Positions 4,796 to 63,627 of a stretch of DNA of 64,000 nucleotides are shown one piece after another. Both the position numbers and the translations under genes were made by a program. The stretch lies in assembly GCA_041749335.1 (NCBI GenBank), contig JBGTBM010000007.1, positions 149,957 to 213,956 of the forward strand, written 5' to 3'. Every line of letters starts with the position of its first letter. The stretch's first letter is position 1. Under the pieces are notes generated by a model, which saw only the letters and a program-made list of their open reading frames with translations, did not search any database and had not been told where the DNA came from. The DNA is from Patescibacteria group bacterium. GTDB taxonomy: Bacteria; Patescibacteriota; JABMPQ01.

Positions 4796-4885
4796 CCTAT
4801 TATATTTTTATCTAAATAAAATAATGATATGATTAAATGTAATAACGAAATACTTTAACATAAAAAAATAAAAAAGTCAATAGAT

Positions 4886-9632: not shown

Positions 9633-10399
9633 AAATTATTAATTTTAACGCTATCTATATTTTATGGCTGCGGGAGATGAAAAGAACCTGGCGGGCTAAG
9701 TCCAGAATTATAGCTACTATTCTAATGCCCTTGTTTTTTTTGGCATTCTTGGGATTTGGTTTTCGCCGCGCATCAATACCGGGATTGCCGGAAGATGTAA
9801 ATTACTCAATATTTTTGGTTCCGGGCATTATAGGCATGACGATGCTTTTTACATCAACCATAGCCGGATTTTCTTTTTTGTGGGATAAAGAGTTCGGTTT
9901 TTTAAAAGAGATTATGGTTACTCCGGTTTCCAGATTATCGATAGTGATTGGAAGAATAGCTGGCGGCGCGACTATATCAATTTTCCAGGGTTTGATTATA
10001 CTTTTTTTAAGTTATATTTTTGGATTTAGAATTCCGGGCATTTTTGCTTTTTTATTGACCTTTTTATTAATGTTAATTATCTCTTTTACTTTTATTGGGA
10101 TGGGGTTAATTTTCGCTTCGCGCATGAAAGACATTCATGGATTTTCTCTAATCGTAAATTTTGTAGTATTCCCAATATTTTTTTTATCAGGTGCAATATA
10201 TCCCCTAGATGAGATGCCAAAATTCATTAGAATTTTAACTTATATTGATCCTTTGACTTATGGAGTGGACGGGTTGCGCAATATTCTAATTGGATCTTCG
10301 ACATTTCCTTTTTTGTTTGATTTTGCGATTATGCTATTGGTTTGCGTAATATTTTTAGTTGTGGGGTCATATTTGTTTGAAAAATCAGAAGTAAACTAA
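9629..10399 (+). CDS. ABC-2 type transporter permease
   Basis: Six predicted TM helices, overlapping the ATPase stop. Typical ABC-2 permease size. Confidence 0.75.
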   Translation: MKIINFNAIYILWLREMKRTWRAKSRIIATILMPLFFLAFLGFGFRRASIPGLPEDVNYSIFLVPGIIGMTMLFTSTIAGFSFLWDKEFGFLKEIMVTPVSRLSIVIGRIAGGATISIFQGLIILFLSYIFGFRIPGIFAFLLTFLLMLIISFTFIGMGLIFASRMKDIHGFSLIVNFVVFPIFFLSGAIYPLDEMPKFIRILTYIDPLTYGVDGLRNILIGSSTFPFLFDFAIMLLVCVIFLVVGSYLFEKSEVN

Positions 10400-10417
10400 T
10401 TTAAAAAGTTTGTCATT

Positions 10418-12121
10418 TTGTGGTATAGTGTAAAAAATAGCTTATTTATGCAAAAGAGAACATATTGGATATTAATTATTGTATTGATTCTACTGATTAT
10501 AGCGATTGCAGCGTGTTTATTTTGGTTTATCAATAAGGAAAATATTTTTAATGAAGAAGATGGCGAATTAATCATTAGCAATAATGCCAATGAAGATGTT
10601 GTGGGGCCTGGGGGAAATAATTATATTTATTGGCTTCAAGAAATCGGGACGGAAAAAAATCTTATGGCGATGCGAGGAGATGGAAGGGAAGCAGGAAATG
10701 TGTTTGAAGATGATGCACCATGGCCCAATACGGGAATCGTGGAAATTGCTTCGGATGGCTCTAGGTATGCCTATCTCTGTCCTGATAACAAGAATAAAAT
10801 TTGCGTTTATAATTTAAATGATAAAAAACTTTTAAAGTTAGAGATTAAAAATGAAATTCAGGATTTATCATGGAGTAATGATGGTAAAAATATAATATTT
10901 ATCAGTAAAGATAATTATAACGGAAAAGAAAACAATATTATTGCTATTATAGATGCGGACGGCAATAATTATCGAGAGATTATTAGCGGAAATAATTTGC
11001 TCGGACAGCCTGCGATGCCCCTTATATCACCCAATGGTGAAAAAATATTATTCCAAATAAGCAAGGAAAATGGAAATCAGGGAATTTATATAATCAATAT
11101 CGACGGGCAAGAAATTAATCCATTGATTGATTCTGAAAAAAACGAGACAGACGCTCGATTTTCACCTGATGGAAATCGGGTGGTATATTGTGTTAAAAAT
11201 GGGACGGAACAAATTTATATAATGAATATTGATAGAAGCAATAATCAGCGATTGACTCAACTGGGAAATAATCACAAGCCGGATTTTTCACCGGATGGAG
11301 ATCGTATGGTATTTGTATCAGATCGAGATCATGGAGGAGTTTGGGAAATTTATGCTATGGATATTGATGGGGCAAATCAAACCAGGCTGACCAATAACGA
11401 TATTAATGATTTATGGCCTCGCTGGTCTAGCGATAAGATTAATATACAGGTGGAAGATGAGATAAACGATCCCGGCATTGTATTGAATTCGTTTATTATG
11501 GCAAAAATATCAGATACTGCGGAAGTTATTTTGGAATTGGTCCATCCGGACTCAAGATCAAATATGGATTTAATTAATCCCTATCGTAATCTATATTCTG
11601 AAGATGTTGTGAGCTATAATTTATTGGCAGAACAAGATATGGAAGGTGGAAAGAAAGAATTTGAAGTTGTGTTAAAATATCGAAACGATAAATTAGCAGA
11701 GCAAACTTTGTATTATCAGCTGGAACTTTATAATAATAACTGGGTTGTGTCTGATGTGAAATATAAAGAAGAAAGTATTGAAGATGAAAATAATATTTTA
11801 TCAAAGAATATTATTGTAGGCCCTATTGAAAACGACAGAACTGCTTTGGAAAATAAACAAGTGGCGGTTGATGATGGAAATGAGGTCTGGCTTTTAGATC
11901 CATATGAAGTTGCCAAAAGAGATAGTAATCATTATGGATTTGATCCGAACAAAGACATATACACACTGGTCTCTAAGGTTGAAATTGGCGATTATTCCGG
12001 AACAGGCGAGGCGACCATAGAAGTTAATCATGAAAATGATATTTATATCATCCAATTGATTCAGCCTACAAGGCCGGGAGATGATGGAATTTGGGCGTTA
12101 AATAATATAGTCAAAAAATAA
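10418..12121 (+). CDS. TolB-like WD40/PD40 beta-propeller protein with N-terminal TM anchor and an uncharacterised C-terminal domain
   Basis: Repeated PD40-like units ('FSPDGNRVVY', 'FSPDGDRMVFVSDRD', 'ISPNGEKILF', 'WSNDGKNIIFIS'). Confidence 0.65.
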   Translation: MWYSVKNSLFMQKRTYWILIIVLILLIIAIAACLFWFINKENIFNEEDGELIISNNANEDVVGPGGNNYIYWLQEIGTEKNLMAMRGDGREAGNVFEDDAPWPNTGIVEIASDGSRYAYLCPDNKNKICVYNLNDKKLLKLEIKNEIQDLSWSNDGKNIIFISKDNYNGKENNIIAIIDADGNNYREIISGNNLLGQPAMPLISPNGEKILFQISKENGNQGIYIINIDGQEINPLIDSEKNETDARFSPDGNRVVYCVKNGTEQIYIMNIDRSNNQRLTQLGNNHKPDFSPDGDRMVFVSDRDHGGVWEIYAMDIDGANQTRLTNNDINDLWPRWSSDKINIQVEDEINDPGIVLNSFIMAKISDTAEVILELVHPDSRSNMDLINPYRNLYSEDVVSYNLLAEQDMEGGKKEFEVVLKYRNDKLAEQTLYYQLELYNNNWVVSDVKYKEESIEDENNILSKNIIVGPIENDRTALENKQVAVDDGNEVWLLDPYEVAKRDSNHYGFDPNKDIYTLVSKVEIGDYSGTGEATIEVNHENDIYIIQLIQPTRPGDDGIWALNNIVKK

Positions 12122-48512: not shown

Positions 48513-50126
48513 GTTTTTTGACCTTAATTTTTTGTGGTAGGTAATCGCAAAGCGATGGGCTTCGTCTCTGATTCTTTGCAATAATTTTAACGTGTCGGAA
48601 TATTTATTTAAACTAATAGGATTTTTTTTATGAGTAAGAAATACTTTTTCTTCTTTCTTCGCCAAAGCAATTAAGGGCATAGCCAGTTTTTTTGCCGTTA
48701 GTAGATTCTTTATTTGATTAAGCTGCGGTTTGCCGCCGTCTAAAATAATTAAATCGGGATAAGGCCAGGAAATATTTTTTAATCTTCTTGCAATAATTTC
48801 TTTCATCATGGCAACATCATTGGCGCCGCGGACGGTCTTTATCTTAAATTTGCGATATTCTTTTTTATCAGCCTGCCCGTTCGTGAAGACTACCATTGAT
48901 CCTACGGCCAAAACCCCTTGAATATTTGAAATGTCGTAGCATTCTATCCTTTTGGGAAGGTTGGTCAAATATAATGAGGTTTTTAAATTTTGTAATATTT
49001 TTTGGTTTTTGGAATTTATCGTCGGTCCGATTTTTTTTGCTAAGAAATTTCTGGCATTTTGAATACCCAGATTTATTATTGCTTTTTTCTTGCCGCGCAC
49101 CGCCTGAATAATCTTTAATTTTTTATGGGCTTTTTTGCTTAGGAGTAAGGCAAGAGGGGCAGCATTCGGGATTGCCGCTTGAGTGATAATCTCCTTCGGA
49201 AAATCAAAAGCATGCAGATAATATTCTTTAATAAATGATTCCAGCAATACATGTTCGGAAAATTTTCCCAAATTATCAATAACAAAATTTTCCTTGCCGA
49301 TTATTTTACCTTCACGAACGATAAAAACATTTACGTAATAATTATGGCGGTATTTTATATAAGCGATATAATCTTGACTTTCATTTTTGGTAGAAATCAC
49401 AGATTGCTTTTCAATAATTTTGGTTAAATCGGAGATTTGATCTCTAAGCATGGCCGCCTTTTCGTAATTTTTGCTGCGGCTCGCGAGCGTCATTTGCGAG
49501 CCTAGTTTTTTAATTATCGCGGAACGTTTTCCCAATAAAAAAAGTTCACAATTTCGGATAATATTGTTATATTCGTCTTTATTTATTGCGCCGATGCAGG
49601 GAGCTAGGCATTGTTTAATGTGGTATTTCAGGCACGCTTGATTTTTTCCAAATAAATTTTCACTGCAATCACGGTAAGGAAATAATTTTCGCAGCATTTT
49701 TAAAGTTTGTCTGACTGCTTGTCCGTCCGTGAAAGGCCCAAAATAAGCGGATTGGTTGTCGTCAATTTTTCTTACGGTATAAATTTTGGGATATTCGTTG
49801 AGATTATCAATTTTAATGTATAAATAATTTTTATCATCCTTGAGCCTGATATTATAAAGGGGGCGATATTGTTTGATTAAATTTGACTCCAGTAAAAGCG
49901 CTTCGTATTCATTTTTGGTGATAATATAATCAATATCCGCGATTTTATTTATCATATTGATTTTTCCGGCTTCCAAATAATTTGATTTGAGAAAATACGA
50001 ATTAATTCTATTTTTAAGAATTTTCGCTTTGCCAACATAAATAACCCGGCCCTCACTGTTTTTAAAAAGATAAACGCCGGGTTTCAGGGGAATATTTATT
50101 AAGACATTTGCAATATTTTTGGTCAT
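48501..50126 (-). CDS. uvrC: Excinuclease ABC subunit C
   Basis: GIY-YIG 'GVYLFKNSEGRVIYVGKAKILKNRINSY', the UvrC family middle region, and a C-terminal RNase H-like/HhH. Confidence 0.85.
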   Translation of the reverse strand: MTKNIANVLINIPLKPGVYLFKNSEGRVIYVGKAKILKNRINSYFLKSNYLEAGKINMINKIADIDYIITKNEYEALLLESNLIKQYRPLYNIRLKDDKNYLYIKIDNLNEYPKIYTVRKIDDNQSAYFGPFTDGQAVRQTLKMLRKLFPYRDCSENLFGKNQACLKYHIKQCLAPCIGAINKDEYNNIIRNCELFLLGKRSAIIKKLGSQMTLASRSKNYEKAAMLRDQISDLTKIIEKQSVISTKNESQDYIAYIKYRHNYYVNVFIVREGKIIGKENFVIDNLGKFSEHVLLESFIKEYYLHAFDFPKEIITQAAIPNAAPLALLLSKKAHKKLKIIQAVRGKKKAIINLGIQNARNFLAKKIGPTINSKNQKILQNLKTSLYLTNLPKRIECYDISNIQGVLAVGSMVVFTNGQADKKEYRKFKIKTVRGANDVAMMKEIIARRLKNISWPYPDLIILDGGKPQLNQIKNLLTAKKLAMPLIALAKKEEKVFLTHKKNPISLNKYSDTLKLLQRIRDEAHRFAITYHKKLRSKNLTQ

Positions 50127-50182
50127 ATTGATAGTTTAAAAATAAAATTCGTATTTAACAAGAATATTTGTGTAAAAAACTA

Positions 50183-50211
50183 TTGACATACACTAATAAT
50201 GTGTTTAAGAT
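50183..50211 (+). promoter_or_regulatory. Sigma70-like promoter upstream of rpoB (-35 TTGACA, 17 nt spacer, -10 TAAGAT)
   Basis: A consensus -35 with correct spacing, about 85 nt upstream of the rpoB ATG. The ribosome-binding site AAGAAAGAGAG precedes the start. Confidence 0.45.
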
Positions 50212-50296
50212 TAACCTATGCTAAAATTAAATATGTAATAAACGCCTTCTATTTTATAAAGGCTCATTCTTTAATATAAGAAAGAGAGTTATTTTT

Positions 50297-53200
50297 ATGC
50301 TACAAAAAATGTCAATTTTAAACATGCCCATGTCAAAAAGAAAATTTTTTACCAAAAAGCACGAAATAATTGATCTGCCACCCCTTACCGAAATTCAAAT
50401 CGATTCATATGAATGGTTCCTAAGAGAAGGAATGATGGAGCTATTTAATGAAATATCTCCGATTAAAGATTTTACCGAGAAAAAATTCGATCTTAATTTC
50501 ACCGATTTCTTAATTGATGAACCTAAGATGGATGAAAGATTAGCGAAATCAAAAAACGCCACATTTGAAGCTGCCGTGAGAGCTAAGGTGCAGCTTATTA
50601 ATAAAGAAACGGGAGAAATTAAGGAACAAGAAATATATTTAGGCGAGTTCCCCTTAATGACCGATCGAGGAACTTTTATTGTTAATGGCGTGGAGAGAGT
50701 AGTGGTTAGCCAATTGATCCGCTCTCCCGGTGTTATTTTTACTATGCAGGAAAATAAAGGCGAAAGATTGTTTGGCGCTAAAGTTATTCCTAATCGCGGC
50801 GCTTGGTTGGAATTTGAAACCGATTATCACGGTGTAATTAATGTTAAAATTGATCGCAAAAGGAAAGTTCCCGCCACTTCATTAATGAAAGCTTTCGGCA
50901 TTGGCCTTGATAAAGAGCTTAAGACAATATTTAAGGATGTTGATACTCATCCCGATAAAAAATATATCGCAGCAACCCTGGAAAAAGATTTGGCTAAGAA
51001 TGAAAATGACGGACTGATTGAAGTTTATAAAAGAATCAGGCCGGGTGATTTGGCTACCGCAGATAATGCCAGATCATTAATTGAAGCGATGTTTTTCAAT
51101 TTTGAAAGATATGATTTAGGCAAGGTGGGACGATTTAAAATGAACCAGCGGCTAGGTATAGATATTCCGATCAATAAAAAAACCAGAGTATTTAGAAGAG
51201 AAGATTTAGTGCTTTTGATAAAAGAGATAATCAGATTAAATGTGCTTGACGGCAAGCCGGATGATATTGATCATTTAGGCAATAGGCGTTTGCGCGCTGT
51301 CGGAGAATTAGTGCAAAATAAACTAAGAATAGGTTTAACCCGCATGGTGAGAATTGCCCGGGATCGAATGAGCACCATTGATCCGGAAACTTTAACTCCA
51401 GCCCAGCTGATAAATGCCAGACCGATTATTGCTGCCGTGAGAGAATTTTTCATGTCTTCACAGCTATCGCAATTTATGGATCAGACAAATCCTTTATCCG
51501 AATTGGAACATAAAAGAAGAGTATCGGCTATGGGGCCGGGCGGATTATCCCGAGAAAGAGCGGGCTTTGATGTCCGCGATGTGCATCGATCTCATTATGG
51601 CAGAATTTGTCCGATTGCTACTTCGGAAGGTCCTAATATTGGATTGGTCGGACATATTTCATCCTACGCAAGAGTCAATGAATATGGATTTATCGAAACC
51701 CCTTATCGCAGAGTGGCCAGAGAGTTTAGCTTAAAAGATCTTGATCGGGCCGTGGGGGAATATACATATAAAGATATTGAAGATCCTAAAACCAAAAAAG
51801 TATTAATTCCGGCTGAAAGCAAAATTACTCATGAAGATGTAAAGAAACTTAAAAAATCAAATATAGAATCTTTGGTCGTTAAATCGCGAGTGACCGATGA
51901 GATAGTTTATCTTGATGCGTTTGAAGAAGAGCAGGCGATTACTACGCCGGCCACCACGCCGATTGATGAAAATGGATTCTTTGCTAATAAGCGAGCCGAA
52001 GTAAGAGTGAAGGGCGAACCTTCACTGGAAGCTACCGGAAAAATTGAATATATGGATGTTTCTCCCCGCCAGATTATCAGCGTGGCTACTTCGATTATTC
52101 CCTTTTTGGAAAATGATGATGCTAATCGCGCCTTGATGGGAACCAATATGCAGCGTCAAGCGGTTCCTTGTATAAAGCCACAAGCTCCAATTATCGGAAC
52201 GGGCGTTGAAGGCAGAGTGGCTAAGGATTCGGGAGCGGTCGCGATAGCAAAAAAAAGCGGAGAAGTAATTGAATTGAGTTCAGATCTAATCAAGGTTATG
52301 AGCGATGATGGCGAAGTGATTGAATATAAGCTTCATAGTTTTGTCAGATCAAATACTTCCACTTGTATAAATCAGCGGCCAATTGTAAATATCGGTGATA
52401 AATTAAAAAAGGGACAAATAATTGCCGATGGTCCCGCGGTGGAAAATGGAGAATTGGCGCTGGGGCAGAATCTATTGGTGGCATTCATGTCATGGCATGG
52501 CGGTAATTTTGAAGATGCAATTTTAATTTCAGATCGTGTTTTGAGAGACGATCGTTATACTTCAATACACATTGAGGATTTTTCGGTTGACGTGAGAGAT
52601 ACCAAGCTTGGACCCGAAGTTGTGACCAGAGATATTCCCAATGTTGGAGAGGAAAAACTAAAAGACTTAGACGAAGAAGGAATTGTAAGATTAGGAGCAG
52701 ACGTTTCTTCGGGCGATATTTTGGTTGGAAAAATTACGCCCAAAGGAGAAACTGAACTAACCGCGGAAGAAAGATTATTGCGAGCTATTTTTGGCGAAAA
52801 GGCGCGCGATGTTAAAGATTCATCCTTATATCTTGAGCATGGCGAGCAAGGCAAAGTTGTGGATATTAAAATATTTTCACGCGAGGCCGGCGATAAGCTT
52901 CCCACCGGTGTCATTAAAACTATTCAAGTTTCCATCGCGCAGATGAGAAAGATCCAGGTGGGTGATAAGCTGGCCGGACGCCATGGAAATAAAGGTGTAA
53001 TTTCAAAAATAGTCCCGGCGGAAGATATGCCTCACTTGGAAGACGGCACTCCGGTTGATGTTGTTTTAAATCCTTTGGGAGTGGCATCGCGTATGAATTT
53101 GGGCCAAATATTGGAAACTCATTTGGGCTGGGCCGCTAAAAAATTGGGCTATACGGTAGCTACGCCGGCACTAGACGGTTTATCCGAAAAAATGATAAAA

Positions 53201-53692
53201 GTTGAATTGAAAAAAGCGGGAATTCCGGAAGATGGAAAGGTGCAGTTGACAGACGGCAAAACCGGAGAAAAATTTACCGAAAGAACAACCGTGGGCATTA
53301 TGTATATTTTAAAACTTTATCATTTAGTTGAAGATAAAATCCATCAACGTTCTATTGGACCATACTCATTGATTACCCAACAGCCATTGGGCGGTAAAGC
53401 TCAATTCGGCGGCCAAAGATTTGGAGAAATGGAAGTGTGGGCTCTGGAAGCTTATGGCGCCGCTCATACTTTGCAGGAAATGCTGACTATCAAGTCCGAC
53501 GATGTCTTGGGAAGATCAAAAACTTATGAAGCCATTATTAAGGGCGAGGAAATTAAAAAACCCAATATCCCCGAATCTTTTGGCGTATTAATTAAAGAAT
53601 TAAAAAGCTTGGCGCTTGATGTAGAACTGGTGGAAAGTGATGAGAAGAAGAAAGAGCGGGAAAGGAAAGAGCGGTTCAGAAGTAAAAAATAA
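50297..53692 (+). CDS. rpoB: DNA-directed RNA polymerase subunit beta
   Basis: Multiple invariant RpoB blocks ('[20 protein letters not shown]', 'GPNIGLV', 'NMQRQAVP', '[12 protein letters not shown]', '[27 protein letters not shown]'). Confidence 0.95.
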
Positions 53693-53731
53693 TTATTATT
53701 TAATTTATAAAAATTTAAATATTAAAAATAT

Positions 53732-56700
53732 ATGATTCCTACAGACTTCAAGGCCATGAGGCTTAAACTGGCTTCTCCCGAAGATATCCAAGAATGGTCT
53801 CATGGGGAAGTGAAAAAACCCGAGACTATTAATTATCGTACCCAGCGTCCGGAAAAAGACGGGCTTTTTTGCGAGAAAATATTTGGACCAACTAAGGATT
53901 GGGAATGCTACTGCGGTAAATATAAAAGGATTAGATATAAAGGCGTGGTATGCGATAAGTGCGGAGTGGAAGTAACTCGATCAATCGTCCGCAGAGACCG
54001 TATGGGACATATTTCTTTGGCCACTCCTGTTTCCCATATTTGGTTTTTAAGAGGCGTGCCTTCTAAAATCGGCTTACTGCTTGATTTATCATTCCAAAAA
54101 CTGGAGAAGGTGATATATTTTGCCGATTATATTGTTACTTCAGTAGATGAACAGGCTAAAGAGGAAGCTATCGAACAGCTGAAGGCGGAATTTAAATCTA
54201 AACAAAAGCAGATACATGATAAATATAAGCAACTCGCTTCTGCCACCAAGGTAAAAGAGGGAGATAAGACAAAAGATTTAAATAAAGAATTAAATAAACA
54301 AATCAAGGAAAGAGAAGCGGACTTATCTAAGTTGGATAAACTTTTTAAAAAAGAAAAATCTAATTTGGATCAACTGAAAAAGCTAAAAATAATCTCTGAA
54401 ATGGAATATCGAGATTTGTCTTTGAAGTATGGGCATGTTTTTGAGGCGGGAATTGGAGCGGAAGCGATTAGAAAAATATTGAGCGAAATCGATTTGAAAG
54501 AGCTGGAAAAAGAAATGGAAAAGAAAGGCGAAGATATTCCCGCAACCCAAAAGAAGAAGCTTAAAAGAAGGTTAAATCTTGTTCGCGGCATGATGAACGC
54601 CAAAGTCAGGCCGGAATGGACCGTATTGACGCACCTGCCGGTTATTCCGCCGGATCTAAGGCCAATGGTGCAATTGGATGGAGGTAGGTTTGCCGCTTCA
54701 GACTTGAATGATTTATATCGCAGAGTAATTAATCGAAATAACCGCTTAAAAAGATTGATAGAATTAGACGCTCCGGAAGTTATTTGCCGGAATGAAAAAA
54801 GAATGCTGCAGGAAGCAGTTGACGCTTTGATAGATAATACCGCCAGACACGGCAGCGCCGCCGCCGCGACGACCGGCAAGAAAAGGCCGCTGCGCTCTTT
54901 GGCAGATATGTTAAAAGGAAAACAGGGCAGGTTTAGACAAAATTTATTAGGCAAGAGAGTTGATTATTCCGGAAGGTCGGTCATTGTGATCGGTCCGAAT
55001 TTGAAATTAAATGAATGTGGAATTCCTAAAACCATGGCGCTGGAATTGTTTAAGCCGTTTGTAATTAATAAATTGATTAATAGCGAATTGGCGCACAATG
55101 TTCGTTCAGCTTCTAAATTAATTGAAGAGGGAAGAACTGAAATTTGGGATATGTTGGAAGAAGTGATTAAAAATCATAAAGTGCTTTTGAATCGCGCTCC
55201 GACCTTGCATCGCCTTGGCATCCAAGCCTTCCAGCCGGTATTAATTGAAGGCAAAGCGATACAAATTCATCCAATGGTTTGTTCTGCCTTTAATGCTGAT
55301 TTCGACGGCGATCAAATGGCGGTGCATGTGCCGCTAACTCCGCAAGCCATGAAGGAAGCCGACAAAATAATGAGTTCCGACGTTAACTTGTTAAAGCCGG
55401 CGACCGGCGTGCCGATTACGACCGCTTCACAAGATATCGTTTTGGGCTGTTACTATATGACCAACATTAAAAAAGGAGTTAAGGGTGAAGGCCGCTATTT
55501 TAAAGATTATGATGAAGCGATGTTGGCCTATCAGTGCGGTGAATTAGATGTTAGGGCCCAAATGCATATTAGATTAGACGGAAAAATTATTGAAACTTGT
55601 TTGGGCAGAGTTATTTTTAATCAAATTCTTCCCAAAAAATTACAATTTGTAAATAAAACATTAGATAAAAAATCATTAACCAAGTTGATATCTGAATGTC
55701 TGGACAAGTACGGCAAGGAACGCACGGTTGAACTGATAGATAATTTAAAAAACACCGGATTTGCCAATCTGACTAAATCGGGGCTTTCTTGGGGAATGGA
55801 CGATTTGAAATTACCGGAAGAGAAACCGGCGCTAATTGAAAAAGCGACGCAAGAAGTTGAAACAGTGAGACAACAATTTAAAATGGGTCTTTTAACTGAT
55901 GATGAAAGATATCGAAAAATTATTGAAATTTGGGCAAATATTAAAGAAGAGATCACCAAGGTGGCGGTCGGGAAGTTGGATAAACATGGACCGGTTTATA
56001 TGATGATTGAGTCGGGCGCGAGAGGAAGCTGGCCGCAAATCGTTCAACTGACCGGAATGAGAGGCTTGATGGCGGCGCCATCCGGAAAAACTATCGAATT
56101 GCCGGTGAAAAACAGCTTTAAGGAAGGGTTGGGAGTATTGGAATATTTCATTTCTACCCATGGAGCGCGCAAGGGTTTATCCGATACCGCATTAAGAACC
56201 GCCAATGCCGGATATTTAACCAGAAGGCTAATTGATGTTGCTCAAGATATGATTGTCAAGGAAGTTGATTGCGGCGATACCGAAGGAATTGAGGTTACCA
56301 GGCAGGAAAGCGAGGATATGAGCAAAGATTTTGCGAATCGCTTGTTGGGCAGGACCGCTTTAGTCGATATTAAGGATGAAAAATCCAAAGAAGTAATCGT
56401 TGAAAAGAATGAAATTATAAATGAAAAACAAGCTCTAAGAATTGATGAATTGGGTTTAGACAATGTTAAAATCAGATCGGTATTATCTTGTCAGGCGAAA
56501 TCAGGACTTTGTTCCAAATGCTATGGCTGGGATTTAGGTACCAATAAAGAAGTGATTATCGGACAAGCGGTGGGAATCATTGCCGCACAGTCTATTGGTG
56601 AGCCCGGTACTCAACTTACCATGCGTACATTCCATACCGGTGGTGTTGCCGGCGAAGGCGATATTACTCAAGGTTTGCCGCGCGTGGAAGAATTATTTGA

Positions 56701-57535
56701 AGCCCGAGGAATTAAAAAACCGGCGATAATTGCGGAAATTAATGGAATGGCGCATGTAGCGGAAGAAAAAGAAAATAAAATCATTCGAATATATTCTACC
56801 AATATCAAAAAAGATGAATATAAAATCGCAGGTTTAAAGCCGGCGGTTAAAGACGGTGATAAAGTGGAAAAGAATCAAGTAATTGCTAAGGATAAGAAAG
56901 GTAAAAGCATAAAAGCCAAAAATGCCGGATTTGTCAAAGTAAAAAACGACTTATTGTCGGTAATTCATGAAGGAGGAGAAGAAAAAGAATATATCTTACC
57001 AGCCAACGCGGTTATCTGGATTAAAAAGGGAGACTTGGTGACGAAGGGACAACAATTAACTGAAGGATCAATTGATATCCAGAGCTTGTTTAAGCTAGGC
57101 GGGCCAATTGCGGTGCAAAAATATATATTAAGAGAAGCTCAATTTATTTATTCTTCACAGGGGCAAGATGTTAATGACAAACATATCGAAATTATTGTCA
57201 AACAGATGCTTTCCAGGGTAAAAATCTTATCTGCCGGCAATAGCGAGTTGTTAGCCGGTTCCATTGAGGATAAAATTAAATTTGAAGATACCAGAGACAG
57301 GCTAAAAAAAGAAGGAAAAAGACCACCGGAAGCCTCTTCGCTGCTATTGGGCATTACCAAAGCTTCGTTGACCACTCCCAGCTTTTTATCAGCCGCTTCG
57401 TTCCAGGAAACATCTAAAGTATTGATTGAAGCTTCCATTATCGGAAAGACGGATAATCTTCGTGGATTAAAGGAAAATGTAATAATCGGCAAGCTTATTC
57501 CGAGCGGAACCGGATATAAAGCGACGGAAAAGTAA
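53732..57535 (+). CDS. rpoC: DNA-directed RNA polymerase subunit beta'
   Basis: Zn-finger '[23 protein letters not shown]', catalytic '[12 protein letters not shown]', and trigger loop/bridge helix blocks. Confidence 0.95.
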
Positions 57536-57557
57536 AATAAATTTGAATAAATCAAAA

Positions 57558-57580
57558 AGGTCCGATGCGCGGACTTTTTT
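57558..57580. terminator. Bidirectional intrinsic terminator after rpoC
   Basis: Stem AGGTCCG/CGGACTT with loop ATGCG, an A5 run upstream and a T6 run downstream. Confidence 0.6.
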
Positions 57581-57602
57581 GATTGGCAGATTGACTTTTA
57601 TA

Positions 57603-57980
57603 TTATTTACCTTTTGGTTTTTTTAGGCCAATCAAGAAAAGAATACCGGCTATCAGGAAGGGGAAAGTTAAAATAAAAATAGATAGCGCTTCATTTAAAC
57701 CAATGGTTAACCAAGTAAAAATTATTAAAATTAAACCGGAAATAATAATCGTTAGGCTTCCCGACCTGGCATTTTTCCAAGATATAATTACTCCGGTAAT
57801 ATTCAATACCATTAGCGTAGTGAGCAAAAATTTTGCCAGGCTTAAATCTTTTTCTGCGGATATTGCTTGCACCAGCAATGTTGCTCCCCAAAAAATCGCA
57901 GCTAAAGCGCCGATTATTTTCCCCAGCAAGTTAAAAATATTTTGCGTTAAAGCTGTTTTTTTTGTAAAATTATTTGGCAT
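57603..57980 (-). CDS. Hypothetical small membrane protein
   Basis: Four predicted TM helices. Preferred over the overlapping + strand ORF because of its hydropathy periodicity and the downstream terminator. Confidence 0.45.
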   Translation of the reverse strand: MPNNFTKKTALTQNIFNLLGKIIGALAAIFWGATLLVQAISAEKDLSLAKFLLTTLMVLNITGVIISWKNARSGSLTIIISGLILIIFTWLTIGLNEALSIFILTFPFLIAGILFLIGLKKPKGK

Positions 57981-58025
57981 AATTTAAATATTATAATAGT
58001 GTAATTTTACCGAATTTTATTTATC

Positions 58026-58052
58026 TTGACAATTGATAGCCGAGCTGATAAT
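58026..58052 (+). promoter_or_regulatory. Sigma70-like promoter (-35 TTGACA, about 15 nt spacer, -10 GATAAT)
   Basis: Hexamers upstream of the ribosome-binding site 'CAAGGAGAAGAAAATG' at 58100. Confidence 0.4.
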
Positions 58053-58099
58053 TTCACTGTAATTTGCACCTTATTGGATCAGATTCCAAGGAGAAGAAA

Positions 58100-58363
58100 A
58101 TGTTAGGATCTTTGAAAAAATATTTGGTTTTAAGATTTGGATTTGTTTTTATGGCAATTCATTATGGGGAAATTCGGGAAGTTGATTTATTTGTTAAGGC
58201 CCTGCGTGGTGTTTCCGGAGTGGACTTGATTTATTATCAGGAATACGCTGATCAAGTGATGGTTAAAATATTGGGAGATACCAATCGGGTAGAGCGGGCG
58301 ATGCGGGAATTGATTCCCAGATTTCGATTAGACATTTCTCGAAATGGCATTAAGGTTCACTGA
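58100..58363 (+). CDS. Hypothetical small protein (possibly a ferredoxin-like alpha/beta fold)
   Basis: An ATG with a good Shine-Dalgarno sequence (AAGGAG), 87 aa. Overlaps the next gene by ATGA, suggesting translational coupling. Confidence 0.45.
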   Translation: MLGSLKKYLVLRFGFVFMAIHYGEIREVDLFVKALRGVSGVDLIYYQEYADQVMVKILGDTNRVERAMRELIPRFRLDISRNGIKVH

Positions 58364-58770
58364 TGGACTTAGCCAGACTGAAATTAATTAATATTCCGGC
58401 CGATTGGATTCCCGGGCGCGACGCGTTTGTGAGATTAAGGATAAATCCGAAACAATCTGATTTCTCTGATGAAATATTGCCATATGCTGAAATTGCCGCT
58501 TCAATATTTGTTTGGCTAGCTAAGAAGAATAACGGATTTAAGCCGATTCCGTATCAGAATTTGTCTGAAATAAAATCGCCCTTAGTGCGTATTACCAGTC
58601 CGGAAGGCGATACTTTTGAAGCAACGCGCTTAGCGGCAGGAATAAAAATATTAATAGAGCTGGGCTGGGTGGAAAATGATGAAGAAAATAGGTTGTTTAT
58701 AGTCGATCAAGGCATTTTGAAAAATATTATTTTTTGTCACCAGGTTTTATTTTCATCTCCGTGCGCTTAA
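58363..58770 (+). CDS. Hypothetical protein
   Basis: 135 aa with no recognisable motifs. Its 3' end and terminator are duplicated 0.8 kb downstream. Confidence 0.45.
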   Translation: MDLARLKLINIPADWIPGRDAFVRLRINPKQSDFSDEILPYAEIAASIFVWLAKKNNGFKPIPYQNLSEIKSPLVRITSPEGDTFEATRLAAGIKILIELGWVENDEENRLFIVDQGILKNIIFCHQVLFSSPCA

Positions 58771-58862
58771 AAAATAAATCTCTTTTTAGGCGAAGATATT
58801 TTACTAAATTCCCTCGAAGTGAATTATGTCACATATCGAGGGTTTTTTAATTAATTTAAATT
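58746..58862 (+). repeat. Direct repeat copy 1 (gene 3' end + terminator + AT-rich tail)
   Basis: About 80-85% identical to 59587..59694, ending in an identical 'CGAGGG(A)TTTTTAATTAATTTAAATTTT'. Confidence 0.7.
58811..58848 (+). terminator. Rho-independent terminator (CCCTCG...CGAGGG + T6)
   Basis: A 6 bp GC-rich stem with an 18 nt loop that itself has GTGA/TCAC pairing, followed by TTTTTT. Confidence 0.6.
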
Positions 58863-58981
58863 TTTTATATTAAAGAGAAAAAGGAGAGAAGGAGTATTTT
58901 ATTGATAAACTTGACAAAAATTATAAATATGATTAAATGAATAGTTCTCAACATATGAGCCGTGAAGGCTAAGGAGGAACA

Positions 58982-59431
58982 ATGTATAAGAACTGGAAGG
59001 CAATTTGTGAAGTTAAGGATAATCATATGATGTGGGCGCTGGCGCTCCTTGATCTGACATCCGATCTTGGTCGAAGGTTCGTGGAGCAACTTCCGGAGTT
59101 TTTCTCACAGGAAGAGACTGCCGGACCTTATCCGCTGTCACTTATGCGGGAAGCAGCGCAGGAAAATGGAAGAAAACAGGGCACTGACAATGGGGCAAAT
59201 TACATTGTCTCTCACGATGGCGTACCCGGCCACATTCCTGTTAAGATGTTTGACAAGTTTGGCAAGAATGTTGCTTCTCTCAACGGACCAAAGCTGCCTG
59301 ACGAGATCAGTCCGGATGCTCGCGCGGGTGAAACAGTTACCTGGGAGGGTAAACAGTTCGTTGTATTGGAAAACAACGATAGCTGTGAAGAGCTAGCGAT
59401 TGCGCCGGCAGAACTGATCTTTGTTGATTGA
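58982..59431 (+). CDS. Hypothetical protein encoded by a GC-enriched cassette
   Basis: A strong ribosome-binding site (AAGGAGG, 6 nt spacer) and a TTGACA -35-like hexamer upstream. GC is around 48% against a roughly 33% background. No recognisable family. Confidence 0.55.
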   Translation: MYKNWKAICEVKDNHMMWALALLDLTSDLGRRFVEQLPEFFSQEETAGPYPLSLMREAAQENGRKQGTDNGANYIVSHDGVPGHIPVKMFDKFGKNVASLNGPKLPDEISPDARAGETVTWEGKQFVVLENNDSCEELAIAPAELIFVD

Positions 59432-59586
59432 TCTTTAATCCAATTAAATTTATTAGTATTCCGCATTGGAGAGTTAATCTAATGCGGTTTTTTATACAAA
59501 AAAATATTCAAAACAATTTTAGTTATTATTCGGGAAGAATGTGAAGTAAAATTGAATCTGAACAAATAGAATTAGATAATTGCAGC

Positions 59587-59694
59587 CCTATTATTTTTAT
59601 CTCTGTGCGTTTAAAAACAATGTCTTTTTACGTGAAGAGATTTTACTAAATTCCCTCGTGCACATCGAGGGATTTTTAATTAATTTAAATTTTA
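59587..59694 (+). repeat. Direct repeat copy 2 (relic gene 3' end + terminator + AT-rich tail)
   Basis: Contains the relic reading frame '...LLFLSLCV*' (compare copy 1 '...VLFSSPCA*') plus the same terminator arms. Confidence 0.7.
59653..59677 (+). terminator. Rho-independent terminator (CCCTCG-TGCACAT-CGAGGG + ATTTTT)
   Basis: A 6 bp stem with a 7 nt loop and a T-run. This is a paralog of the 58811 terminator. Confidence 0.6.
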
Positions 59695-59753
59695 TAGACC
59701 AGCAAAGAAAATTTATAATATTGCGACAATCTGAAACATGATAAAGTCGGATT

Positions 59754-60164
59754 TTATTCAATTTCTTTTACTAATTTTTTAATTAATAATATTATTTGAT
59801 TTCTTACTTTGCGATGTAAATTCAATTCTCCTTTATCCGGATCTTCAATATCCCAAAAAGATAATTTATTCGACTTTTTTAAAAAATCCGGCCAACCTTC
59901 CTTTTCTCCAATTACAATTACTTTTTCTGCTTCATCTATCATTTGTTTTGTTAGTTTTTTTGAGAATTTGTCATTTATATCATAGCCAATTTCAGCCATT
60001 ACGGAGGCAACAAATTTTGTTTTAGATAATTTTTGGCCTTCCCATAATTTTGGGGGATTGAGCCCGGCACTGATAGCTTTATGTTTTTTGGTGATTGAAT
60101 TAAAAATTGCTTCCGCCATCTGGCTTCGTCCAACGCTTGCTCGGCAAATAAAAAGTACTGTCAT
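59754..60164 (-). CDS. Low-molecular-weight phosphotyrosine phosphatase / ArsC-type arsenate reductase family protein
   Basis: P-loop 'CRASVGRS' (CX5R-S) at the N-terminus and a conserved Asp-Pro 'DIEDPDKG' region. Confidence 0.7.
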   Translation of the reverse strand: MTVLFICRASVGRSQMAEAIFNSITKKHKAISAGLNPPKLWEGQKLSKTKFVASVMAEIGYDINDKFSKKLTKQMIDEAEKVIVIGEKEGWPDFLKKSNKLSFWDIEDPDKGELNLHRKVRNQIILLIKKLVKEIE

Positions 60165-60189
60165 ATTTTTAAAATAAAAGTTTATTGAT

Positions 60190-60741
60190 TTATTTCGATG
60201 TGCTTGCGCGCTGAAACAACAGCGCCGATATTACAAAGAGCATGGCAAAACACGCATTTAGAACAAACACCCGAAACACGCTTGGCGACCAGGAGGTAGT
60301 AGAAGGCGGCCAGATAATGAGTGCTATCAGGGGAACCGACATTTGCGCCACAGCCGTCGTAAATAATGTTATTGCCATTCCGCGCGGCTTAAAGCGTGCC
60401 ATCAAGGAGCCGATTAATCCGACCGCGAATACTATTGTATACATCAGGTTGGCGGGTTGATCTTCGTTCCCGATGATGCCGACAGCGCCATTCACGAAAA
60501 AAAGGAAGAAAGCTCCCATAAGTCCAATGCTAAAAGCGGCTCGGTACACGGATTTCTCCACCCTTCTTGCAATTAGCTCATACGCAAAGGCAAGGCTTGA
60601 CAGGACAACGCCCATTAAGATGAAATCGAACAAGCTCCAATTCACTTCTTTAGTAAATTGCATTGCGATAAGTGGTATCATCAATACGAGCGCGATGGCG
60701 GCAGCCCACACAATTATTCTTTTTGCAATATTTTGCATCAA
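60190..60741 (-). CDS. Hypothetical membrane protein (5-6 TM)
   Basis: 183 aa, hydrophobic, comparatively GC-rich. Probably co-transcribed with the LMW-PTP/ArsC-like gene. Confidence 0.45.
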   Translation of the reverse strand: MMQNIAKRIIVWAAAIALVLMIPLIAMQFTKEVNWSLFDFILMGVVLSSLAFAYELIARRVEKSVYRAAFSIGLMGAFFLFFVNGAVGIIGNEDQPANLMYTIVFAVGLIGSLMARFKPRGMAITLFTTAVAQMSVPLIALIIWPPSTTSWSPSVFRVFVLNACFAMLFVISALLFQRASTSK

Positions 60742-60808
60742 GATTTAAATTAATTATATAAACATCCAATAGAATAATTTTCTCTTTTACAAATAAAAAT
60801 TATTTCCG

Positions 60809-61897
60809 TCATGAATTAGGATCCGCTTTCTTAATAATTTTTACGGTGCCATTTTTTGTATTTACTTCGACTACGTCATCATTTTTAATTGCTTTTGTGG
60901 CAATTTTAGTAGCGATTAATGTTGGTTTTTTTAATTCTCGCGAGATTATGGCGGCGTGGCAAGTTAAACCTCCTTCATCAGTCACTATCGCGGCAGCTTT
61001 TTTCATTGCCGGTAGGAAATTTGGAGCGGTCATTGCCGTAACTAAGATTCCATCCTTCGGAAAATTATTTATATGGTGACTAAGGAAGATTAAAAAAGCT
61101 TTGCCCCGAACTGTTTTTCCAATATATGCTGATTGTCCTTTAAAAAAATTTATTCCTTTTTCAAAAAAATCAAAAGTATAATTTGCATCTTGCAGTAATT
61201 TTGGAAAAGACTTATTAACATATAATTTGCCATTGATAATAACATAGCCCTTCTGCCTTGCTTTTAATTTATCTATATTTATTGAATATTTTTCGGCAAA
61301 TAATTTATTAAATTCGGATAAAGTTAAAAAGCGGGCGAGCAAAGGATCCGCATTTAGATATCTTAGCTTTTCAGCTACTATTTTTCTAATAAATAAATCC
61401 ATTGATTCAAAAATTCCTTCAATTTTTATCCTAAGATTAAAAAAGTCATTGATGATTCTTTCACTGTCGCTACCGCGCAATTTTTTAAAGTCATCGGACC
61501 ATGGTCCGGGTAAAAAATTTGCCAGCATATAACCCGGGTACATTTCAGACCATAAATGAAAAATTTCATCTATCAGGTCGGTATAATCATTTTCTGTTTT
61601 TTTGTTAAGTAAAAATTTTATCCGTTTTACCGCAGCAATGGTTATTCGAATACGGTTTTGAGAAAACAGCGGGTGATTCGTTGGCAAATTAATTACATGA
61701 TTTTTAATTTTTTCGACTTCATCGTGTATGCGATACGATTCAATTACTTTGCCATTAAAATGAATAATTTGGTCAGAAATAGTAATTCCCCAAATTTTCT
61801 TTATATCCTTGAGAAGCAGTTGGTCCCGCCAAAAAATACAAGTAAATAAAGAAATATCTCTAGTGAAGATTAAATCCAATTTTTTTAATTTTGTCAT
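60809..61897 (-). CDS. PEP-utilizing enzyme mobile (phosphohistidine swivel) domain protein with an uncharacterised N-terminal domain
   Basis: The C-terminal 'GILVTAMTAPNFLPAMKKAAAIVTDEGGLTCHAAIISRELKKPTLI' is a PEP-utilizers motif with the phospho-His. The N-terminal roughly 270 aa has no recognisable motifs. Confidence 0.6.
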   Translation of the reverse strand: MTKLKKLDLIFTRDISLFTCIFWRDQLLLKDIKKIWGITISDQIIHFNGKVIESYRIHDEVEKIKNHVINLPTNHPLFSQNRIRITIAAVKRIKFLLNKKTENDYTDLIDEIFHLWSEMYPGYMLANFLPGPWSDDFKKLRGSDSERIINDFFNLRIKIEGIFESMDLFIRKIVAEKLRYLNADPLLARFLTLSEFNKLFAEKYSINIDKLKARQKGYVIINGKLYVNKSFPKLLQDANYTFDFFEKGINFFKGQSAYIGKTVRGKAFLIFLSHHINNFPKDGILVTAMTAPNFLPAMKKAAAIVTDEGGLTCHAAIISRELKKPTLIATKIATKAIKNDDVVEVNTKNGTVKIIKKADPNS

Positions 61898-62006
61898 ATA
61901 TGTTATTTATAATATTTTGATAAAGATGCGGGAAATTTTACATTTAATATACAATTACCAATCAAATTTTTCTACAAAATTCACTAAAAAGTGAAAAAAA
62001 ATTATT

Positions 62007-62567
62007 TTAGTTTATATTTGTCAAATGATTCCTGTCTTGTTCTGATGTCCATTTGAAAGGATTATTTTGTACGTATTTACGAATATTAAATAATGATTTT
62101 TCATTGCGAATAATATGGTCATAAAAAGATTTCTGCCAGACAAATTCATCATTATTTTTTTCACGAAAATATTTAGTAACGCCTATTTTGAAACCGCGGA
62201 TAATTGATGATAGCGATTTTGATAATTTTGTTTGCCATGGAAGGGAACAAAAATTTTTGTTCCCTTCATCATTATTTTTAATTATCACGATTCCGTGAAT
62301 ATGGTTTGGCATAATTATAAATTCATCCAATATCACGTTTGGGAAATGATCCGGAATTTCCCGCCAGCATTTTTTTGTGATTTTCCCATATTCATTCAAC
62401 GTCAATTCTCCGTTTTTTATTTCACCGAAAAATTCCTGCCGATTTTTGGTACAAATGGTGACAAAATAATACCCATTTTGGGAATAATCATATCCTTTCA
62501 ACCTGTTTAATTTGCGATCGGGCAAATTTTGCCCTCTTTTACCCGATTTCTTTATTATATTCTTCAA
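62007..62567 (-). mobile_element. IS200/IS605-family Y1 (HUH) transposase, RAYT/TnpA_REP-like
   Basis: 'YFVTICTKNRQ' (like the IS200 'Y..VW.PKYR' block), the HUH motif 'MPNHIHGIVII', and the catalytic Tyr context 'WQKSFYDHIIRNE' typical of REP-associated tyrosine transposases. Confidence 0.7.
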
Positions 62568-62693
62568 TTTTTTTATTTCTTTTATGTAAAAATACTATAT
62601 AATTATTTTCCATTTATTCCAATTTATTATGGTATTTTATATTACAAGAAAAACCAAAAATTGGGATTTTTGCAAGCCGGTGGCGGTTAAAGA

Positions 62694-63110
62694 TTATCTT
62701 TTTTCACCACATTTCAAACAAGAATCTCTATGTACACAAAGCAATTCTCCACATTTTGGGCATTTCCATATTTTTTGTTCGGATTTAACAAATTTCTTAA
62801 TTCCAAATTTATTAATAAATTCTAGATTTTCAAGCATACTCATTCCGTATTTGGTTCGATACCTCTTATCGAGATTTTTTAATCTTGTGCAGGGGAATTT
62901 TTTACACTTATCCGAACAAAATTTCCATTTATTTTTCTTTAGGATTTGGCAACTTCTTATGATGCATTTTCTACCATAACTTGATCGGTATGCATCCATT
63001 TCTCTACAGCCGAGACATTTATTTTTCTCTCTAAGATAACCCAAGCAAATTCCACAATTCATTCCGCAAGGGGCAACTAGTTTGGGATTAATTGTAGATT
63101 TTTTGTTCAT
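62694..63110 (-). CDS. Cys-rich zinc-ribbon-like protein (DUF3795-like)
   Basis: 138 aa with about 8 CxxC pairs ('CGMNCGIC', 'CLGC', 'CKKFPC', 'CPKCGELLC', 'CLKCG'). Confidence 0.5.
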   Translation of the reverse strand: MNKKSTINPKLVAPCGMNCGICLGYLREKNKCLGCREMDAYRSSYGRKCIIRSCQILKKNKWKFCSDKCKKFPCTRLKNLDKRYRTKYGMSMLENLEFINKFGIKKFVKSEQKIWKCPKCGELLCVHRDSCLKCGEKR

Positions 63111-63185
63111 ATAAAAAAAGAAAGTCCAATTATTTAAATTTATTTAATATCGTGGTCTGGATAATATTGAATATAACATTTGCGT

Positions 63186-63503
63186 ATATCTGATGTTTTA
63201 CGGAGTGAAGGCTAGGCAAAGTTTCGTAAAAATTTGCCTGTCCTGAGCATGTCGAAGGGAGCATAGCCGTTTAGCCGTTGTTATGCGAAGTCGCGCAGCG
63301 ACTATCGGCTAGCCGCCGCCATTAGGCAAAAGAGCGAAGCGATTTTGCCTAACGTTCCAGCGTATGCGATGTTTTTGCGACCAACGGGAGCAAAAATATG
63401 GGAGAGGGGCGAGCCGAGCCCCGAACCGCATACGCTGTGTTATACGCCCCGACGACCGAAGGGAGGAGAGCGCAGCGGGGCGCGACTGAAAGGAGCGAGT
63501 TCA
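63186..63503. ncRNA. Candidate structured non-coding RNA (class not assigned), GC about 60% in an AT-rich background
   Basis: No credible ORF. Nested helices: 213-220/233-240; 272-277/306-311 enclosing 289-294/298-303; a 10 bp hairpin 322-331/343-352; an 11 bp long-range helix 359-369/427-437 enclosing hairpins 372-378/390-396 and 406-410/418-422; and 445-451/476-482. Confidence 0.45.
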
Positions 63504-63627
63504 AAAAATATTTTTCATTCAATTTCATTTTGACAGGCTTTTTATTCAATAATCATAAATTTGTTTTTTTGTTTTGGATTTTGGGCAGAGGGGTTAGGGG
63601 TGAATGCCCAAAATCCAAAACTCCTTA

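Follow-up and report, generated by a model that had tools for sequence, protein, structure and literature searches.

The window analysed here is a 64,000-nt stretch of contig JBGTBM010000007.1 (assembly GCA_041749335.1), which comes from a Patescibacteria group bacterium. Near its right end lies a single gene, called the cargo gene below, which is bracketed by the two copies, R1 and R2, of a direct repeat of 110-135 nt. The whole cassette occupies the interval between a gene of 135 codons, gene A, and a convergent low-molecular-weight phosphatase gene (Table 1). R1 begins within the end of gene A, and R2 carries a counterpart of that gene end at which no gene arrives. Here we describe the anatomy of this locus, the family of mobile genes to which the cargo belongs and its connection with integron-type arrays, and weigh the possible origins of the repeat pair.

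Table 1. Features of the cassette locus and its surroundings (positions are those of the window)
Feature	Position	Strand	Description	Basis
87-aa open reading frame (ORF)	58100..58363	+	Leads the resident two-gene operon; overlaps gene A by ATGA	ORF list
Gene A, 135 aa	58363..58770	+	Resident gene; its last 24 nt open R1	ORF list, L015 orthologue
R1	58747-58881, core 58747-58868	+	Last 8 codons and stop of gene A, hairpins 1 and 2, AT-rich tail	Alignments, folds
R1 hairpin 1	58764-58792		Spans the gene A stop codon	Folding
R1 hairpin 2 / terminator	58811-58842		G+C-rich stem, then T run	Folding, terminator scan
Predicted cargo promoter	58911..58938	+	TTGACA 58911-58916, 16-nt spacer, extended -10 TGATTAAAT 58930-58938	Read from sequence
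Cargo Shine-Dalgarno sequence	58971..58977	+	AAGGAGG, 4 nt before ATG	Read from sequence
Cargo ORF, 149 aa	58982..59431	+	Function unassigned	ORF list
Predicted cargo terminator and cassette motif	59461..59513	+	Terminator 59461-59487 and T run, then conserved motif CAAAAAAATATTCAAAA 59497-59513	Terminator scan; homologue alignment A5
R2	59591-59711, core 59591-59697	+	Relic of the gene A end, hairpins 1 and 2, AT-rich tail	Alignments, folds, terminator scan
R2 hairpin 1	59599-59641			Folding
R2 stop-codon relic	59612-59614
R2 hairpin 2	59652-59672		G+C-rich stem, then T run	Folding, terminator scan
Low-molecular-weight phosphatase gene (LMWPc)	59754..60164	-	Convergent neighbour	Pfam PF01451, E = 3.8e-14
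attC sites (two)	63167-63290 (27.9 bits), 63343-63449 (89.7 bits)	+		Covariance model, exact motif match

A gene end and its terminator are repeated on both sides of the cargo

When the 450 nt on each side of the cargo are aligned locally with gaps, R1 and R2 pair with a score of 66 (z = 25.8 against shuffled flanks), and both MAFFT and a repeat search agree. This confirms the first-pass annotation, which had reported direct repeats of about 110 bp, each with a gene end and a terminator, around a single gene. The copies are identical at 89 of 102 aligned positions (87%) when the loop of hairpin 2, where they differ by a 13-nt indel, is left out, and each folds as two separate hairpins. Their longest exact block measures 21 nt (58844-58864 = 59673-59693); the tail that had been described as 28 identical nucleotides in fact consists of 8 identical positions, one mismatch and these 21. 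R1/R2 is the sole substantial local direct repeat in the window (at least 30 nt, within 4 kb), the remaining pairs being few and either shorter or located inside coding sequence. A diagnostic 20-mer and a 30-mer from the repeat occur at just these two sites in the 64 kb (chance expectation, 0.02 and 0.00). Exact-pattern searches with the repeat core gave 0 matches in 185,579 species genomes and 3 in the JGI metagenomes, all of them chance matches in contigs of 55-57% GC.

The intergenic DNA of this region is AT-rich and of low complexity, which could by itself produce a chance similarity between terminators. Such an origin is extremely unlikely in view of the alignment score and of the 24 nt of coding sequence that the repeat includes. 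The same holds for an assembly artefact, because a separately built Logan contig from run SRR28170473 matches positions 48982-63340 of the window with 0 mismatches and because the longest shared exact block is too short to mislead an assembler with k of at least 31. We regard both possibilities as refuted.

The order rpoC-DUF7670-87aa-gene A is kept in relatives, namely in contig L014 (92% nucleotide identity) and in contigs L015 to L017 (about 70%), and by this synteny gene A is classed as a resident gene. Homologues of the 87-aa protein, at 81% and 67% identity, are found in short metagenome contigs. Gene A is orphan-like in word-indexed searches, and an exhaustive HMMER search returned the distant homologues P0031 and P0032; neither the 87-aa protein nor the gene A protein has a match in Pfam, NCBIfam, PADLOC or PHROGs. 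The gene A orthologue of L015 ends in ...SFSFPCA, against ...LFSSPCA in the window, and the C-terminus encoded by R1 therefore belongs to gene A.

In R2, the corresponding frame is closed by a TAG 13 codons upstream and no ORF enters the repeat, so that this copy is not the genuine end of a full-length gene. Over the last 21 coding bases, R1 and L015 disagree at four sites, and R2 matches R1 at every one of them; R2 departs from R1 by three extra C-to-T changes, all of them non-synonymous. These shared states and changes indicate that R2 descends from the gene A end of this very lineage and that coding selection on it is gone. R2 would thus be a non-coding relic that has drifted by about 13% and differs by the loop indel, and R1 would still supply the end of gene A together with its predicted terminator. 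This matches the first-pass annotation, in which copy 1 had been taken as the true 3' end of gene A and copy 2 as a decayed form of the same end.

The cargo belongs to a mobile gene family of Patescibacteria

Judged by its sequence signals, the cargo is a complete transcription unit with its own predicted sigma-70-type promoter, 5' untranslated region (UTR), Shine-Dalgarno sequence and terminator. The strong Shine-Dalgarno sequence and the TTGACA hexamer had been recognised before, and the extended -10 element can be added to them. With a GC content of 0.487 and a third-position GC content (GC3) of 0.487, against ORF means of 0.355 and 0.327 (z = 3.3 and 3.1), the cargo is the most GC-rich of the 59 ORFs in the window; the compositional anomaly noted in the first pass is thus real, and its size is about 13 rather than 15 points.

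The cargo protein has no match in Pfam, PHROGs, NCBIfam or PADLOC. Its AlphaFold model reaches a predicted local distance difference test (pLDDT) value of 94; the PDB holds no sequence-profile or structural relative, and BFVD returned nothing at E <= 0.001. The earlier statement that the protein has no recognisable family holds for curated libraries and folds, but a clear family does exist. At least 25 homologues were collected at 37-70% identity (alignment A2), almost all of them from Patescibacteria, and a genome scan added 11 further loci in metagenome-assembled genomes (MAGs) labelled Patescibacteria, Moranbacteria, Peregrinibacteria, Saccharibacteria and Kaiserbacteria, with one more labelled Bdellovibrionales. 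No relatives were found in the viral contigs of IMG/VR.

Alignments A3 and A5 show a single unit conserved across these loci, composed of a CTTGAC -35 box, an extended -10 element, a 5' UTR, the ORF, a terminator hairpin and an A-rich motif. The pattern CTTGAC-N16/17-TGnTTAAAT recurs upstream of the homologues, with the TTGAC box 71-88 nt before the ATG at most loci. The contexts of the unit are unrelated: it lies after dnaA/dnaN in L007, in the interval between PPDK and tRNA-Ser in L005, and near a serine recombinase in L008. At 5 of the 15 other loci (L001, L002, L019, L020 and L021) the homologue lies inside an integron-type array of attC sites, and the rest occupy unrelated chromosomal sites. 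Its GC content exceeds that of the flanks at 13 of these 15 loci, including every low-GC host. The cargo is thus very probably an inserted mobile cassette, and the proposal that a single-gene cassette was inserted next to a terminator is strongly supported by the conserved module, its unrelated contexts and the five attC arrays.

Several of the loci show further features near the homologue. Tandem paralogues of the cargo family occur in a Kaiserbacteria MAG (L028, 4001-4519 and 4543-4980), and an apparent flanking direct repeat at that locus proved to be just this paralogue pair. Clusters of perfect palindromes lie a few hundred nucleotides downstream of the homologue in L027 (4696-5598, 8 copies of AATTGTTCCACGTGGAACAATT) and L022 (4963-5359, 4 copies of TTTGAGGTCACAAATTGTGACCTCAAA).

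Integron-like arrays house cargo homologues, and attC sites occur in the window

In L001 and L002, the cargo homologue stands among small ORFs spaced by repeats of the form ..TAAC-GT-N7-TATGCG ... CGCATA-N7-T-GTTA... An alignment of 11 such attC-like sites (A7) has the hairpin paired in 97% of cells, with compensatory changes in 6 of 15 pairs. A covariance model built from these 11 sites of the lineage identified 25 attC sites in the loci examined, and every one is oriented alike with respect to the cargo homologue. The arrays of L002 and L021 adjoin genes for tyrosine recombinases of 270-276 aa (10034-10864 and 4692-5504, respectively), which pass the NF040815 model ('XerA / integron integrase') with 231.7 and 221.8 bits at a cut-off of 220 and fail the classical IntI model TIGR02249. 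By these profile matches, the two loci are integron-like arrays in Patescibacteria with XerA-like integrases. Few of the papers searched connect integrons to Patescibacteria or to the Candidate Phyla Radiation (CPR), and no description of these arrays was found there.

The same model locates two attC sites in the window, 3.5 kb from the cargo and in the orientation relative to it that is seen in the arrays of other genomes; on folding, the window attC hairpin is closed by TAAC...GTTA. The first-pass annotation does not mention this integron context, nor the cassette-like relative of gene A described below. No ORF lies between the two sites, and the array probably continues past the window end (64000). 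A tblastn search with the L002 integrase found no match in the window. Between 57000 and 63166 the model finds no attC site at E <= 10 with filters off, and the cargo itself has no 3' attC. The array-borne homologues have inverted flanks of 48-62 nt (z = 7.7-21), and inverted repeats flanking the window cargo are at background level (z = 2.1). In L002, the homologue lies between two 190-nt attC sites that are 77% identical, and a 300-nt duplicate, 100% identical, is found on either side of the homologue and its neighbours.

The L002 arrangement suggests an analogous explanation for the window, since R1 and R2 are placed exactly where an attC site follows each cassette: R1 and R2 could be the recombination sites of two cassettes, one consisting of the 87-aa gene and gene A, the other of the cargo, and the overlap with the gene end would be incidental. 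R1 and R2 were compared with attC sites and rejected as such. They have no TAAC/GTTA boxes, nor the shorter AAC...GTT form, they fold into two hairpins instead of one, and the covariance model gives no match to them even at the permissive threshold given above. Moreover, the C-terminus of gene A is conserved in its orthologues, so that the coding part of the repeat is the gene's own, and gene A stands beside rpoC in relatives and is hence resident. A two-cassette array of this kind is very improbable and largely refuted.

Three additional features of the arrays were recorded. In L002, cassette-specific inverted repeats of 25-62 nt flank each cassette ORF (e.g., 3906-3934/4327-4355 and 5846-5907/6531-6595); as they run outward from the GTTA/TAAC boxes, the attC stem of the circular form would be far longer than the usual 7-bp R box. 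A G+C-rich element of about 55 nt, CCCGACGACCGAAGGGAGGAGAGCGCAGCGKGGCGCGACTGAAAGGAGCGAG, directly follows the attC R' box in the window (63446-63500), in L001 (5806-5860) and in L021 (about 3786-3858); L019 and L002 lack it there. The element may be either an empty cassette or a miniature insertion. Finally, a hairpin whose stem shows compensatory changes and whose loop, rich in G, is conserved (GAGGGG..GGGGTGAAT on the + strand) is found in the window (63572-63625), twice in L002 (7407-7466 and 7473-7532) and in L031 (835-890), always between a minus-strand ORF and the attC of that ORF; it has no Rfam match.

Related layouts at two other loci

A second repeat-bracketed homologue was found in L005, in intergenic DNA on which an 85-aa gene and tRNA-Ser converge. 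It lies between the copies of an imperfect 34-nt direct repeat (4280-4313 and 4959-4991, z = 6.1) that corresponds to the terminator hairpin of the upstream gene. At both loci the duplicated part is confined to the terminator region, with a coding share of 24 nt in the window and 0 in L005. The difference in duplication length, 34 against about 120 nt, excludes a transposase with a fixed stagger, and the difference in sequence between the L005 and window repeats argues against a constant att site borne by the element.

In L007, three small genes upstream of the cargo homologue each end in a homologous junction of about 65 nt. The junctions (4839-4877, 5510-5548 and 5874-5912) consist of a terminator hairpin, a T run and TTGACA, and are 74-79% identical. 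L007 is thus a tandem array of gene-terminator modules without attC sites.

Origin of the repeat pair

From left to right, the locus consists of a native junction, R1, a novel junction, the cargo, a second novel junction, R2 and another native junction, which is the topology of a duplicative insertion. The reading that we prefer, at about even confidence, is that the R1/R2 duplication was created by the event that inserted the cargo. The segment at about 58882-59590 would be a horizontally acquired, self-contained transcription unit, derived from a family of gene cassettes that circulates in Patescibacteria and is partly housed in integron attC arrays. This cassette would have become fixed outside an array, in the space where gene A and the phosphatase gene converge, and its insertion would have duplicated the target, i.e., the last 24 nt of gene A and the two hairpins 3' of it (about 120 nt), which now stand on both sides. 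We infer two possible routes: a Campbell-type single crossover of a circular cassette carrying a copy of R, or fill-in and repair of breaks on either side of the hairpin region. The first-pass annotation had offered two mechanisms, a homologous flank brought in with the cassette and a duplication of the target site, and the searchable data favour neither over the other. As the cassette has neither attC, inverted repeats nor a recombinase, homologous recombination of R1 with R2 is probably the only way in which it can still move.

Several observations weigh against this reading. No empty site, circular junction or pre-insertion allele was retrieved in the searchable data: the contigs of relatives (L014, L015 to L017 and L030) all end before or at the repeat, and when an empty site was sought by exact matching of the phosphatase protein, the only match was the same contig. 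L014, the relative at 92% identity, ends at about 58369, 6 nt past the stop of the 87-aa gene, possibly owing to structural variation in the population or to low coverage. No known enzyme leaves a target duplication as long as about 120 nt, and a fixed stagger is excluded by the unequal lengths given above for the window and L005. The L005 repeat is short and only moderately significant, and none of the other non-array loci examined has a flanking direct repeat. Unevenness in the divergence between R1 and R2, which would mark a crossover core, falls short of significance (Fisher p = 0.15), so that no such core is identifiable. A deletion remnant would be just as compatible with the 13% by which the copies diverge.

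If the pair is such a remnant, two gene-A-type units, arisen by tandem or cassette duplication, would once have flanked the cargo, and deletions would have left R2 as all that persists of the second unit and removed any attC sites. The 300-nt identical duplicate in L002 provides a precedent for duplicated cassettes in related arrays. P0031, one of the two distant gene A homologues, carries a promoter and is succeeded by a terminator and an attC site; it is thus a cassette-type gene, and families related to the cargo and to gene A both occur as cassettes. The divergence of the copies would fit old paralogues. In addition, the right flank of the cargo weakly resembles an outer attC arm with an R'' box at the correct spacing (z = 2.8 against L002). 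This resemblance was rejected as a decayed attC arm, being not significant against L019 and L021 (z = 1.6 and 0.3), and the covariance model detects no attC in that region. The remnant scenario further requires a duplication and at least two deletions, whose breakpoints must have spared the terminator region alone both in the window and in L005. That such a minimal part is retained at both loci argues somewhat against random deletion remnants. A second gene A has left no other trace that we could find; a comparison of the 5' part of R with the 3' region of a distant gene A homologue in L031 scored 15 against a control maximum of 14, which is too weak to be used. We consider an origin by deletion possible and somewhat unlikely.

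A different view of the same architecture is that R1 and R2 are the attL and attR of a site-specific mini-element, whose att site mimics the 3' end of gene A and which would be inserted and excised by a tyrosine recombinase acting in trans, e.g., the XerA-like integrase of a nearby array. The locus has the classic layout of such elements, in which the direct repeats are imperfect and the left one contains the true end of the gene, and the exact blocks are arranged around the hairpin (a 20-nt pre-stem block, both stem arms and the 21-nt tail). The attC sites 3.5 kb away would fit a nearby array. Contig L030, from the sister run SRR28170474, matches positions 57175-58746 at 100% identity and stops at the very base that precedes R1, directly after the GTT at 58744-58746. 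In a k-mer graph, such an end can arise where two continuations exist, and a branch at this point, reflecting polymorphism in the population, would explain it; if an integron-type integrase inserted a cassette at G|TT, the shared sequence would stop at this very base. The end may also be due to low coverage. No recombinase gene was found in or near the element, the tblastn search described above being empty, R is not an attC, and the locus-specific L005 repeat leaves no constant att site. A mini-element is therefore an unlikely source of R1 and R2.

A transposon, an insertion sequence (IS) or a miniature inverted-repeat transposable element (MITE) was rejected, as flanking inverted repeats are missing, the unit encodes no transposase and the duplication measures about 120 nt here versus 34 nt in L005. 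In comparison with repetitive extragenic palindromic (REP) sequences and bacterial interspersed mosaic elements (BIMEs), which are palindromes of 20-40 nt dispersed through a genome in many copies, the repeat is present in two copies only in the 64 kb. No Rfam match was obtained between 56000 and 64000.

Returning to an origin of the duplication at insertion, a general form of it can be imagined, in which cassettes are directed by hairpins to sites behind intrinsic terminators in Patescibacteria and duplicate the whole terminator region (34 nt in L005, about 120 nt in the window), much as a CRISPR repeat is duplicated when a spacer is integrated. These two loci would bear footprints of this process, the L007 junctions would mark an array built by it, and its products would be tandem gene-terminator modules outside attC arrays. 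We consider this broader scheme improbable.

Neighbouring genes

Two genes beyond the phosphatase gene are of note. A gene at 62007-62567 (-) is similar to REP-associated tyrosine transposases (RAYT-like, Y1/HUH; NF047646, 69.5 bits at a cut-off of 80); it lies 2.5 kb off, and its flanks hold no R-like hairpins or obvious REP pairs. A membrane-protein gene at 60190-60741 (-), directly upstream of the phosphatase gene, is the strongest compositional outlier in the window (GC3 0.533, z = 4.0, next to a GC3 of 0.234 in the phosphatase gene). This gene, too, was probably acquired, and it showed no flanking repeats.

Relation to known insertion systems

The closest comparison is with integron cassettes, above all the promoter-bearing, reverse-orientation cassettes of sedentary chromosomal integrons. 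Like these, the window unit holds one small gene of unassigned function and off-host composition. Its homologues lie between attC sites beside a divergently placed tyrosine recombinase (L002 and L021), the family always has the same orientation relative to attC, and attC sites of the same family occur in the window. The window cargo differs in lying outside an array without an attC of its own, flanked by repeats of a neighbour's gene end and terminator, which are not a product of integron recombination. The recombinases of the arrays also differ, being XerA-like (NF040815) and below the TIGR02249 cut-off.

By the known integron mechanism, a cassette inserted at a secondary genomic site, attG, should keep its attC. 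Integrase-mediated insertion of cassettes at attG sites, with the consensus GWT, has been described in a study that is silent on target duplication (bioRxiv 10.1101/2022.09.11.507474). The window cassette resembles such an insertion in being fixed outside attI and attC and in having a GTT exactly at the left edge of R1, and differs from it by the duplication of about 120 nt and by the missing attC.

Genomic islands at gene 3' ends have attL and attR repeats that restore the gene end, and they encode their own integrase. They share with the window the imperfect direct repeats around foreign DNA, with a left copy that completes the gene and a relic on the right. The window element, in contrast, is about 0.7 kb long and has no integrase (tblastn with the L002 protein), its target is the end of a protein-coding gene with its terminator, and the repeat, with exact blocks of 20 and 21 nt, is apparently derived from the locus and not from the element, as the L005 repeat differs. 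In CRISPR spacer integration and in casposons, a whole palindromic target is duplicated by two strand attacks at its borders, which offers a working analogy only: no Cas1 or casposase is present here, and the duplicated unit varies between 34 and 120 nt. Homology-facilitated illegitimate recombination, or a Campbell-type crossover after DNA uptake, can bring in foreign DNA next to a homologous anchor and duplicate varying lengths of recipient sequence.

Significance

The locus is a chromosomally fixed cassette with a long duplication of the neighbouring gene end and terminator. It indicates that integron cassette genes of CPR/Patescibacteria also settle outside arrays in these very small genomes, bringing along their own promoter and terminator. 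The arrays from which the family is known are themselves poorly described; they combine XerA-like integrases with attC sites whose outer stems are long and specific to each cassette, and with two more small conserved elements. The cargo protein, widespread and, by its predicted model, confidently folded, with no structural relative in the PDB or BFVD, is a candidate for functional work. The footprint left at this locus is unlike the products of integron recombination, transposition and simple homologous replacement. If it recurs, it points to an undescribed route of insertion, or to a form of repair by which the disrupted gene is saved.

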